Source: Candidatus Egerieisoma sp.
GTDB lineage: Bacteria > Bacillota > Clostridia > UBA1212 > UBA1255
Length of the DNA: 64,000 nucleotides
Direction: 5' to 3'
Assembly (NCBI GenBank): GCA_045125595.1
Contig: JBGVNN010000024.1
Location: 12,608 to 76,607, forward strand
Part shown: positions 3,761 through 10,125 of the stretch, piece after piece
How positions within the stretch are numbered: position 1 is the stretch's first letter
Layout of the letters: each line of letters opens with the position of its first letter
Program-made: the position numbers and the translations under genes
Notes under the pieces: model-generated
The model's input: only the letters and a program-made list of their open reading frames with translations
The model's database searches: none
What the model was told of the DNA's origin: nothing

Positions 3761-5149
3761 ATGAAAAAAATCAACATTGCAGACATTACGCTTAAAAAGC
3801 TTTCGGAGGATAGAGAAGTTACATTGCTTTTCAGAGAAAAATCAGCCATTGCTAATTGTGCTGATTCACTTGGCGCTGATGTTATTGAATTACCACCTGT
3901 TAAATCTCTTCGAGAAGATACTATCATATATAAAACAATTGCTCAAAATATTCAAAATGCGACACTTGCCATAGCGGTAGGTTTTAACAGTGAAAGTATT
4001 TCTTCTACATGGGAATGTGTAAAAGATGCCAAGAAACCGCGTTTACAGATAGAACTCCCTGTTTCAACAATTCAAATGGAATACACATATCATGTTAAGC
4101 AAGCAAAAATGCTTGAGAAAATCAGTGAACTCATAAAACAAGCAAAAACATTTTGCGACGATGTTGAATTTTCTGCACTTGATGCAACGAGAGCAGATGA
4201 GGACTTCCTTATTGCAGCTGTCAAAGAAGCAGAGGAAAGCGGAGCAACATTGGTTACGGTATGTGATAACGCAGGTACATTTACACCTGATCAAATTGCT
4301 TCGTTGGTTGAAAAAGTGAAGGGTGCTGTAAGTATTCCTGTTTTTGTTCAAGTTTCTGATCATATAAATATGGCTGTTGCTTCTGCTTTTGCGGCAATTT
4401 CCAAGGGTGCAGACGGTCTTAAATGTGCAATGATAGGCAAAGACGTATTGGTAACGGGTGAAATTTCCGACGCAATAAGTGCTTGCGGTGCACAAATTGA
4501 TGCAGAAATTCAATTGAACAACACAAAAATTCATGCCAGCATTGGTGATATGCTTTCAAAAATTAATCATGAAGCATATGAAAAAGAACAAACTGTAAGT
4601 GATAAAACAAATATCTTGCTCGACTCTGATTCGACATTGTCACAAGTTGCTCAAGCAGCTAATTTGCTCGGTTATGAGCTTTCAGATGCAGACGTAGGCA
4701 AAGTTCACAAGGCTCTTAAGCAAGTTTGTATAAAAAAAGGAGCAGTTGGCGCTAAAGAATTCGAAGCCTTGATTGCAAGCTCGGCAATGCAAGCTCCTTC
4801 AACATATCATTTTGAAACATATACAACTACAAGCAGCAATGTATCAAGCTCAATGTCACAAGTTACATTAAAATGCAATGATGAAATTATGTGCGGAGTA
4901 AGTGCCGGAGACGGACCGATAGACTCAGCTTTCCGTGCAATCGAACAGTGCATCGGACATCATTACGAACTCGATGACTTCCAGGTTCAATCTGTAACAG
5001 AGGGTAAAGAAGCATTGGGTTCAGCGCTTGTAAGGCTTCGCAATAACGGCAAGCTCTACTCCGGAAACGGCACGTCTACAGATATTGTTGCGGCAAGCAT
5101 ACGTGCCTACATTAATGCTTTAAACAAAATAGTGTTTGAGGAGGCATAA
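3761..5149 (+). CDS. LeuA/HMGL-family protein (DRE-TIM barrel plus a LeuA_dimer-like C-terminal domain). The conserved catalytic motifs are degenerate.
   Basis: RBS AAAGGAG lies 8 nt upstream of ATG 3761. The C-terminal GDGPIDSAFRAIE...LYSGNGTSTDIVAASIRAYINAL resembles the LeuA regulatory domain. The N-terminal R-D-G-E-Q box is TLKKLSE here, and the H-x-H box is SDHINM. Confidence 0.6.
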   Translation: MKKINIADITLKKLSEDREVTLLFREKSAIANCADSLGADVIELPPVKSLREDTIIYKTIAQNIQNATLAIAVGFNSESISSTWECVKDAKKPRLQIELPVSTIQMEYTYHVKQAKMLEKISELIKQAKTFCDDVEFSALDATRADEDFLIAAVKEAEESGATLVTVCDNAGTFTPDQIASLVEKVKGAVSIPVFVQVSDHINMAVASAFAAISKGADGLKCAMIGKDVLVTGEISDAISACGAQIDAEIQLNNTKIHASIGDMLSKINHEAYEKEQTVSDKTNILLDSDSTLSQVAQAANLLGYELSDADVGKVHKALKQVCIKKGAVGAKEFEALIASSAMQAPSTYHFETYTTTSSNVSSSMSQVTLKCNDEIMCGVSAGDGPIDSAFRAIEQCIGHHYELDDFQVQSVTEGKEALGSALVRLRNNGKLYSGNGTSTDIVAASIRAYINALNKIVFEEA

Positions 5150-5150
5150 T

Positions 5151-8573: not shown

Positions 8574-8592
8574 AAAATGAAGGAGCGATTCT

Positions 8593-10125
8593 ATGATTAT
8601 TAATAAAATCACAGAAATAAATGATATTGTTAACTCTTTTATATGGGGACCATGGGGACTTGTTCTTCTTATTGTCACGGGTATTTTAATGACCTGTTGT
8701 ACTAAGGTTTTCCAAATAACTCACATAAGACATTGGTTTAAGGAAACAATAGGAAGTCTTTTTAAGAAAAACAGTAGTTCCACTAAAAAAACAGACAAAA
8801 AATCCATATCACAATTCCAGGCGCTTTGTACTGCACTTGCGGCGACTGTTGGTACAGGCAACATTGCTGGTGTTGCTGCCGCAATAGTTGTGGGTGGTCC
8901 TGGTGCTGTTTTTTGGATGTGGGTAGCAGCGTTTTTTGGCATGATGACAAACTATTCTGAGAATGTACTCGGAATATACTACCGCCGACGCAACAGTAGC
9001 GGAGAGTGGTCAGGCGGCGCCATGTATTATCTGAAAGACGGACTTGGAAGAAAAAAAGGATTTAAAACAATATCATCAATTCTTGCGATACTTTTTGCCT
9101 GTTTTACTATCTTTGCTTCTTTTGGTATCGGTAATATGGGACAAGTTAATAAAATCACCCTTAATATTCAATCTTCATTTTTCTCCAATGTGGATTTAGG
9201 AACAGTGGGTGGTATTTCCGTTTTGGGTTTAATAATCGGAGGAGTTTTGGTTATACTTGGAGGACTTATTATTCTCGGAGGATTACAAAGAATAGCATCC
9301 TTTGCTGAAAAAGTTGTTCCTTTTATGGCAGGGGCATATATTCTTGGAGCTTTGGCTATTATGTTTATTAACATTGGAAATGTTGGCTCAATGTTTGGAG
9401 CAATATTTAAATTTGCTTTTACTGAAAGGGCGGCTTTCGGCGGTGTTCTCGGTACTGTTATTAAAGCAATGACACAGGGTTTTAAAAGAGGCGTTTTTTC
9501 TAACGAGGCAGGTCTTGGTTCTTCGGTTATAGTACACAGTTCATCTAATGTAAGAGAACCTGTGCGTCAAGGAATGTGGGGAATTTTTGAGGTTTTCTTT
9601 GATACATTTATTGTATGTACAATGACAGCAATAGTTGTACTTTCATCCGGATATATTGATTTGAAGACAGGAAATCCGACAGTTGCCAATTTAGATGATT
9701 CTACATTGGTTTCAAGAACTTTCGGAGATATTTTTGGTGCACCGGGGCAATGGTTTGTTGCAATTGCGTTGTTACTTTTCGCTTTTACAACAGTTCTTGG
9801 ATGGTCGCAATATGGTTCAAAGGCAGTAGAGTATTTGTTTGGAACAAAAGCTGTTAAAGTATATAAAGTTGTTTTTGTACTTATGATTGTATCGGGAGCA
9901 ATAATGACTTCTTCTTTGGCATGGGATATTTCAGATACATTTAATGGATTTATGATGGTACCTAACCTTATTGCTGTTGTATCTCTTTGTCCGTTAGTTA
10001 TTAAAATAACAAAGAATTATATAAACAGAAAAATAAAGAAAAAAGACGAAACTCCTATGTTCTCATATGATGAAGAGCTTCAAAAAGAGGCTCAAGCGGC
10101 AGAGGCGGCAGAGCAAGAGGCATAA
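8593..10125 (+). CDS. Alanine/glycine:cation symporter (AGCS family) permease.
   Basis: RBS GAAGGAG. The motif TALAATVGTGNIAGVAAAIVVGGPGAVFWMW and the multi-TM topology are typical of AGCS transporters. Confidence 0.75.
   Translation: MIINKITEINDIVNSFIWGPWGLVLLIVTGILMTCCTKVFQITHIRHWFKETIGSLFKKNSSSTKKTDKKSISQFQALCTALAATVGTGNIAGVAAAIVVGGPGAVFWMWVAAFFGMMTNYSENVLGIYYRRRNSSGEWSGGAMYYLKDGLGRKKGFKTISSILAILFACFTIFASFGIGNMGQVNKITLNIQSSFFSNVDLGTVGGISVLGLIIGGVLVILGGLIILGGLQRIASFAEKVVPFMAGAYILGALAIMFINIGNVGSMFGAIFKFAFTERAAFGGVLGTVIKAMTQGFKRGVFSNEAGLGSSVIVHSSSNVREPVRQGMWGIFEVFFDTFIVCTMTAIVVLSSGYIDLKTGNPTVANLDDSTLVSRTFGDIFGAPGQWFVAIALLLFAFTTVLGWSQYGSKAVEYLFGTKAVKVYKVVFVLMIVSGAIMTSSLAWDISDTFNGFMMVPNLIAVVSLCPLVIKITKNYINRKIKKKDETPMFSYDEELQKEAQAAEAAEQEA

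Follow-up and report, generated by a model that had tools for sequence, protein, structure and literature searches.

A leucine-type T-box leader, a LeuA-like pseudoenzyme and a TIM-barrel::acyl-CoA ligase fusion in gut Clostridia: a probable route from isovalerate to leucine

The T-box leader and the transcription unit behind it

We analysed a 64,000-nucleotide stretch of contig JBGVNN010000024.1 from Candidatus Egerieisoma sp. (positions 12,608 to 76,607; the whole stretch is called the window below), in which a T-box leader is followed by four closely packed genes on the forward strand. These genes encode a LeuA-like pseudoenzyme of 462 amino acids (3761–5149), an 820-residue fusion of a TIM barrel with an AMP-forming ligase (5151–7613), a predicted cysteine synthase A, CysK, which carries a PALP domain (7638–8573), and an AGCS-family amino-acid:cation symporter with a Na_Ala_symp domain (8593–10125). 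The gaps between them are 1, 24, and 19 nt, in that order, and a site scan between the four genes found neither a terminator-like site nor a promoter-like site scoring above 9/12. Downstream, trpS (10204–11193, + strand; TIGR00233, 335 bits) has its own extended −10 (TG) promoter, which scored 12/12 (10129–10158, + strand). The transcription unit is bounded on its 3′ side by this separate consensus promoter. An earlier reading of the same DNA (the original prediction) had described the four packed genes behind a T-box terminator and the consensus promoter of trpS, and both were recovered here.

The leader (3441–3687, + strand) matched the Rfam family RF00230 over the full model (positions 1–219; 123.9 bits, gathering score 93, E-value 5e-27). 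It was the only T-box leader that Rfam detected in the window. A sigma-70-type promoter, TTGACA-17-TATACT, precedes it (3404–3432, + strand; 11/12 by promoter scoring), and the leader alignment shows that related loci have a comparable promoter, TTGACA/TATAAT, ahead of their leaders. The T-box sequence AGAGUGGUACCGCG was located at 3640–3653, with the UGGU bulge at 3644–3647. The intrinsic terminator (3670–3717, + strand) consists of a helix of 17 bp with arms at 3670–3686 and 3696–3712, followed by a U-run. Its fold has an energy of −25.1 kcal/mol (z = −5.3), and none of 200 shuffled sequences was as stable. The 5′ arm of the terminator overlaps the 3′ side of the antiterminator and includes CGUCUCUUU, which closes the antiterminator in the covariance-model alignment.

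The specifier loop was assigned by the covariance-model alignment and by direct reading. It is GAA-CUC-A (3528–3534), with the leucine codon CUC at 3531–3533 and a purine in the next position. The leader therefore reads as a leucine-specific T-box, and the predicted cognate amino acid is leucine and not a beta-substituted alanine or cysteine. An alternative specifier, UGC (Cys), read from GAAGACUGCAAGUA, was considered and rejected: GAAGACUGCAAGUA is the Stem II S-turn, and the covariance alignment together with 55 related leaders gives CUC.

Specifiers of the related leaders were read by means of MAFFT columns, Rfam alignments, and an anchored heuristic. CUC was found, in one and the same column, in 55 of the 66 leaders that precede a LeuA-like gene; CUG and CCC occurred twice each, and 7 leaders were left unparsed by the heuristic. 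In the MAFFT alignment CUC is kept in divergent surroundings (GAA-CUC-A, GGU-CUC-G, CCU-CUC-C, and UUA-CUC-A), and Rfam covariance-model alignments also gave CUC in the related loci L047 and L062. The leader shares with the leucine T-boxes of leuS and ilv-leu operons of Firmicutes (RF00230) the Stem I, the GAA-CUC-A loop, the AGAGA motif, the Stem II S-turn, the T-box sequence with its UGGU bulge, and the competing terminator and antiterminator helices. What differs is the cargo, which is an acyl-CoA ligase fusion and a LeuA pseudoenzyme in place of a tRNA synthetase, a canonical biosynthetic operon, or a transporter. The RNA is an ordinary member of the T-box family; its cargo is unusual.

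Two loci carry tandem leaders before the LeuA-like gene. In each, a full T-box (110–120 bits) is followed by a compact T-box-like element of 130–150 nt (55–64 bits); the positions are 2042–2244 and 2342–2473 in L073, and 6118–6327 and 6427–6574 in L074.

A conserved pair of degenerate-barrel proteins

The fusion protein was used to scan one genome per GTDB species. At least 595 genomes matched, and 80 loci, with identities of 69–91%, were kept. The carriers are almost all uncultured Clostridia from the gut of sheep, goat, yak, buffalo, deer, and human; two belong to the Spirochaetales. When the window proteins were searched by tblastn, the LeuA-like gene was found immediately upstream of the fusion gene in 77 of the 77 loci that have upstream sequence; in the other 3 of the 80, the contig starts within 200 nt of the fusion gene. 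CysK follows the fusion in only 8 loci and no AGCS gene lies downstream of the pair in any of the 80. For these reasons the conserved unit is taken to consist of two genes.

In the two Spirochaetales metagenome-assembled genomes (L061 and L063), the LeuA-like and fusion pair is present at 50% and 71–72% identity, and no T-box motif was found upstream of it. A pair that lacks the T-box there suggests horizontal transfer out of the Clostridia.

By Pfam and NCBIfam profiles, the LeuA-like protein is composed of a degenerate HMGL-like TIM barrel (residues 4–226), a linker, and a LeuA_dimer domain (residues 331–457). This domain order is that of LeuA itself (TIGR00973/PRK00915). The LeuA_dimer domain (PF08502) scored 107.7 bits over positions 4–130 of the 131-position profile (127/131 positions), and its G-D-G-P-I-D and S-T-D-I..A..AY.NAL motifs are conserved. 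As a whole, the protein falls far short of the LeuA families: the best NCBIfam match, NF002086, gave 249.7 bits against a cut-off of 532, TIGR00973 gave 224.8 against 598.7, the five PRK00915 equivalog models gave 208–250 (cut-offs for these and TIGR00973, 532–748), and all LeuA models taken together gave 169–250 bits against cut-offs of 517–748. Compared with PDB entries 3ewb and 3rmj, the catalytic boxes are lost, with KKLSE standing for RDGEQ, L for the E of FSPEDATR, and QVS for HxH. The Arg-Asp of LRDGxQ, the Glu of ED, and both His residues of HxH that characterize LeuA are therefore replaced, and, unlike LeuA, this protein is always paired with a ligase fusion. Across 48 family members the sites that align with R, D, E, and HxH of the LeuA active site vary; 28% of the LeuA_dimer domain, the best-kept part, is invariant, compared to 10% of the barrel. 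The name ‘2-isopropylmalate synthase’, given to one member of the cluster in at least one source (a JGI label), is contradicted by the scores against the LeuA models. From its sequence, we regard the protein as catalytically degenerate, with a predicted regulatory domain of canonical LeuA quality.

The fusion protein contains the Pfam domains AP_endonuc_2, AMP-binding, and AMP-binding_C. Residues 1–255 (about 5151–5915) form a xylose-isomerase-like TIM barrel and residues 286–820 (about 6006–7613) an ANL acyl-CoA ligase. The ligase belongs to the ANL superfamily (PF00501, 319 bits; PF13193, 57 bits) and has the core motifs YTSGTTGFPKG, YGQTE, HSGD, GRLKD, and AAGKILK. Its nearest NCBIfam family is PRK12583, a subfamily of fatty-acid CoA ligases, of which it is not a member (680.2 bits against a cut-off of 832).

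The barrel scored 46.2 bits with PF01261 (gathering score 31.1). Its AlphaFold2 model, built from a deep alignment, had a predicted local distance difference test (pLDDT) score of 94.2; a model from a shallow alignment with rows 89–100% identical reached a pLDDT of only 59.6 and was discarded. In Foldseek the top matches of the retained model were ketose 3-epimerases, UlaE, and AsbF, with template modelling scores of 0.70–0.78. The fold is common to these barrels and that of the window, but the latter has lost three of its four canonical metal ligands: of the Glu-Asp-His-Glu site, E134 is kept, while D162N, H189R, and E227A have changed. Relatives that are about 30% identical, including other TIM::AMP-ligase fusions and stand-alone barrels, keep D, H, and E. 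Within the fusion family, invariant positions make up 53% of the ligase and 14% of the barrel. Taken together, the three lost metal ligands and the lost LeuA boxes show that both barrels of the pair are degenerate, while the ligase and the leucine-binding-type domain are strongly constrained.

Four distant TIM::AMP-ligase fusions, P0251 (L081, 270–2792), P0245, P0250, and P0265, have the Glu-Asp-His-Glu site intact. P0251, P0245, and P0265 scored 101–111 bits with AP_endonuc_2, compared to 46 for the barrel in the window. The contig of P0251 begins at the gene, and its neighbourhood was uninformative. Such fusions with an intact site imply that the architecture is older than the degenerate, leucine-linked subfamily.

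The proteins of the remaining two genes of the transcription unit matched known families. CysK passed the equivalog cut-off of TIGR01139 narrowly (369.2 bits against 350.95). It lies downstream of the fusion in 8 of 80 loci, all from the nearest subclade, and is preceded there by an Amidohydro_2 gene, in some cases with more genes in between; about 70 of the 80 have no CysK gene nearby. CysK is probably co-transcribed in the window genome without being a conserved member of the module. The AGCS protein gave 441.6 bits with TIGR00835 (cut-off 272.65), and its predicted substrate is probably glycine or alanine. Orthologues with 67–70% identity occur in L022 and L033, where they lie upstream of the pair with a glycine riboswitch (RF00504, 57–60 bits) directly in front (2217–2308, + strand, in L022; 1619–1710, − strand, in L033). 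The AGCS gene of the window has no riboswitch and follows CysK after 19 nt. CysK and the symporter are probably lineage-specific read-through passengers that are co-transcribed in this genome only.

It could still be argued that all four genes form one pathway for making or salvaging a beta-substituted alanine or a sulfur amino acid, since their spacing is tight, no terminator or good promoter lies inside the unit, and CysK also stands downstream of the fusion in 8 related loci. We consider this highly improbable. The specifier is for Leu and not for Cys, Ser, or Ala; CysK passes the cysK equivalog cut-off; about 70 of 80 loci lack it nearby, and where it is present further genes stand between it and the fusion; the AGCS orthologues are under glycine riboswitches; and the conserved neighbours, described below, are Vor, IlvE, and ligases linked to Ile and Val, with no sulfur enzymes among them. 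The original prediction was correct about the barrel::adenylating-ligase fusion and about a LeuA-fold protein without its catalytic boxes. Its suggestion of a beta-substituted alanine route found no support, given the CUC specifier and the equivalog score of CysK. Its broader idea, a non-canonical amino-acid supply route switched by a T-box, stands in outline, but not in the four-gene composition or the target amino acid. Comparison of gene order in relatives, which it had proposed as a check, likewise gave a divided answer: the LeuA-like and fusion genes are clustered and T-box-associated almost everywhere, while CysK and AGCS are not clustered with them.

Neighbours of the pair in related genomes

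All open reading frames of the 80 loci were clustered, and representatives were searched with Pfam and NCBIfam. Paralogous ligases were found in 41 loci (53 copies). These proteins, of about 760 amino acids, consist of an XRE-type helix-turn-helix (HTH), a cupin domain, and a MbcS/Macs-like ligase. Each has its own T-box, examples being at 10515–10763 and 13202–13451 in L047, and at 11461–11700 and 14106–14361 in L062. The specifier is AUC (Ile) in 30 of these leaders and GUA (Val) in 18; 5 of the 53 were left unparsed. Most of the Ile and Val leaders scored 79–89 bits, below the gathering score of 93; their E-values (1e-15 to 4e-18) and their position were the grounds for accepting them. The grouping of the proteins follows the specifier: in 39 of 39 cases a protein and its nearest neighbour have the same label. 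The motif SDTGW-G-K of the Ile-type ligases corresponds to SDTGW-A-K in the Val-type.

The best NCBIfam match of the HTH-cupin::ligases is MbcS (434 bits), and the closest solved relative is PDB 3ETC (8e-183), which we take to be Macs of Methanosarcina acetivorans. Macs of this organism prefers 2-methylbutyrate (PMC10455477). Macs and MbcS are AMP-forming ANL enzymes for branched C4/C5 acids and close relatives of the Ile and Val T-box paralogues. The ligase in the window is placed on another ANL branch, nearest to PRK12583, and is only 24–26% identical to these paralogues; its N-terminal partner is a TIM barrel, whereas theirs is the XRE-type HTH with the cupin.

A third type of ligase was found behind a UUC (Phe) T-box in L022 (leader at 4054–4298) and L033 (4102–4347), where a PaaK-like phenylacetate-CoA ligase of 435 amino acids is followed by an ACT-pair protein of 143–145 amino acids. 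A third leader of this group, in L003, was left unparsed. Alongside each type of ligase there is a putative ligand-binding module, namely LeuA_dimer in the Leu type, cupin in the Ile and Val types, and ACT in the Phe type. This parallel leads us to propose the pseudo-LeuA as a leucine sensor, and it probably acts as a non-catalytic feedback partner of the ligase.

Two further enzymes recur near the pair. The alpha subunit of a VorB-type 2-oxoacid:ferredoxin oxidoreductase (546.6 bits against a cut-off of 399) was present in 18 of the 80 loci, the beta subunit in 11, and the gamma subunit in 10; IlvE (468 bits against a cut-off of 307) was present in 21. Two layouts were typical. In the first, the leucine T-box is followed by the pseudo-LeuA and fusion genes, then by two ligase genes, each behind a T-box, and by IlvE, a P-loop protein, and Vor. 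In the second, seen in L038, L042, L049, L056, and L069, a single operon runs from pseudo-LeuA through the fusion, IlvE, the P-loop protein, and VorABC to a ligase. In operons of the L038 type, the HTH-cupin part is a separate open reading frame.

L038, L042, L049, and L056 are without a T-box. In its place stand a promoter, an Ile/Leu-rich leader peptide (34–36 codons; MNMQSFFTANILLLIAIIILAITKPDKNSAVCRVFK is one example), and a terminator. The region lies at about 6300–6560 in L038, with equivalents in the other three loci, and its GC-rich terminator is formed by GACCTGCGGCA...TGCCGCAGGTCTTTTT. (The leader of L069 is not visible, the contig beginning inside the LeuA-like gene.) This arrangement is that of classical attenuation and provides a second, independent tie to branched-chain amino acids.

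These neighbours bear on a different view of the ligase, namely that it supplies branched-chain acyl-CoA primers for lipid synthesis, like MbcS of Staphylococcus aureus, and not a precursor of leucine. MbcS is the best NCBIfam match of the paralogous ligases, and rumen bacteria do use branched-chain volatile fatty acids for lipids as well. However, control by the charging of tRNA-Leu, tRNA-Ile, and tRNA-Val, and by an Ile/Leu leader peptide in one lineage, fits the supply of amino acids and not of lipids, as does the operon linkage to VorB and IlvE, and we regard lipid priming as quite unlikely.

The P-loop protein of these clusters (222 amino acids; weak match of the ParA/NUBPL type) was found in 27 loci, for example at 16871–17539 in L047. 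Its gene immediately precedes VorB or stands between VorB and IlvE, and the protein may take part in the Fe-S maturation of the oxidoreductase. An Amidohydro_2 protein (PF04909) of about 268 amino acids is encoded immediately downstream of the fusion in 28 loci (for example, 10470–11273 in L030), and upstream of the leader in some. Its best PDB relative is the uncharacterised 3irs, and it had no NCBIfam match. The gene is absent from the window, where CysK stands in its place.

The proposed route and its alternatives

We conclude that the pair of genes behind the leucine T-box probably serves to activate isovalerate under leucine starvation, for reductive carboxylation to leucine, with the pseudo-LeuA as sensor. 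Isovalerate is inferred from context as the most likely substrate, and the direction of flux and the part played by the sensor are likewise given here as predictions. Uncharged tRNA-Leu would pair with the CUC specifier and the UGGU bulge, stabilising the antiterminator and allowing read-through of the 17-bp terminator. The fusion ligase would then convert isovalerate to isovaleryl-CoA, a VorB-type oxidoreductase would carboxylate this reductively to 4-methyl-2-oxopentanoate, and IlvE would transaminate the latter to leucine. Vor and IlvE are assumed to be encoded elsewhere in the genome from which the window comes; in relatives they are often part of the same cluster. The pseudo-LeuA would provide leucine feedback on the ligase, perhaps through a contact between the two barrels.

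The requirement of rumen and hindgut bacteria for branched-chain volatile fatty acids has been known since the 1960s, as has their carboxylation of these acids to Leu, Ile, and Val and of phenylacetate to Phe; iso-acids are in use as feed additives. Acid-carboxylation pathways of rumen bacteria were reportedly described by Allison some 60 years ago. PMC7356843 cites papers on the conversion of isovalerate, isobutyrate, and phenylacetate to leucine, valine, and phenylalanine, respectively, in rumen bacteria, and gives 2-methylbutyrate as a precursor of isoleucine. The predicted chemistry is the same as in the rumen route (acid to acyl-CoA to 2-oxoacid to amino acid), the habitat is likewise the gut of ruminants and other herbivores, and there are parallel routes for Val, Ile, and Phe. 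The rumen work is physiological and isotopic; in the present analysis the T-box codons point to candidate genes for each acid.

We found no paper linking T-boxes with acyl-CoA ligases, 2-oxoacid:ferredoxin oxidoreductases, or reductive carboxylation, and none naming bacterial isovalerate-CoA ligase genes or their control, in a search that covered few subscription-journal papers. What is new here is the connection between a regulatory device and a physiological pathway, both already known, by way of genes that had not been assigned before, one of which encodes a pseudoenzyme. The specifiers CUC, AUC, GUA, and UUC act as built-in labels on four types of ligase, by which the old rumen physiology can be turned into testable predictions of gene function for at least 595 species-level genomes, almost all of them uncultured. 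The known T-box regulon is widened to enzymes of acid activation, and the pseudo-LeuA is a clean candidate for an enzyme that has been reused as an allosteric sensor subunit.

A larger scenario is put forward tentatively, and we hold it to be possible but somewhat doubtful. A LeuA would have turned into a stand-alone leucine sensor that docks on the degenerate barrel of the fusion, so that the feedback inhibition of LeuA is moved onto salvage; together with the HTH-cupin and ACT partners and the specifiers, this would make a complete and hitherto unassigned acid-carboxylation gene set in hundreds of uncultured Clostridia from the herbivore gut.

Several points weigh against the isovalerate route. 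The ligase domain scores below the cut-off of PRK12583, a family whose own specificity is uncharacterised, which leaves isovalerate assigned by context only. No Vor, IlvE, or paralogous Ile/Val ligase genes were found in the 64-kb window. A TIM barrel and a LeuA-like protein are not required for reductive carboxylation, and the pathway leaves both unexplained; the Amidohydro_2 neighbour likewise has no role in it. Two leaders from Ructibacterium sp. (L028, 6300–6542; L045, 2586–2832) have the proline codon CCC in the loop GAA-CCC-A and are otherwise very like the leucine type. Finally, the replacement residues N162 and R189 of the fused barrel, along with R164, are invariant or nearly so in the fusion family, and such conservation may indicate that the site is not dead but has taken on a new catalytic or ligand-binding role.

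The last point belongs to the most substantial of the alternatives, in which the degenerate barrels (the LeuA-like one, the fused TIM barrel, or both, possibly with the Amidohydro_2 protein) catalyse new chemistry, and the ligase activates some other source of a leucine precursor in place of isovalerate. Besides the three conserved residues, the persistence of some LeuA barrel motifs (D..T, MEY, DATR, and D..G) and the Amidohydro_2 gene after the fusion in 28 loci are in keeping with it, and the distant fusions with an intact E-D-H-E site indicate that two active enzymes were joined originally. The barrels, however, evolve much faster than the regulatory and ligase domains (10–14% invariant against 28–53%), the formerly catalytic R, D, E, and HxH positions vary within the LeuA-like family, and the Vor and IlvE context already completes a route from a simple acid. 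Active barrels therefore appear unlikely to us.

The direction of the isovalerate route could also be questioned. Vor and IlvE are reversible and serve amino-acid fermentation as well, and the module might be catabolic, with the AMP-forming ligase run in reverse to turn acyl-CoA from leucine fermentation into acid and ATP. A T-box is switched on when the cognate tRNA is uncharged, here when leucine would be scarce, which is the opposite of what catabolism needs; a catabolic role has very little to recommend it.

Two other features of the window were noted. Just upstream of the T-box leader, a gene at 842–3310 (+ strand), with a terminator at 3341–3371, encodes a protein of 822 amino acids that has a signal peptide, several QxW-type (ricin-lectin-like) repeats, a Pro/Glu/Thr linker, and an endonuclease/exonuclease/phosphatase-like C-terminal region ending in SDHHPVFV. 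A ribosomal protein L10 leader (RF00557, 52.5 bits) lies at 30826–30951 (+ strand). L028 also has an L10 leader (16752–16878), about 6 kb downstream of the module, and its presence in both suggests a similar chromosomal neighbourhood.

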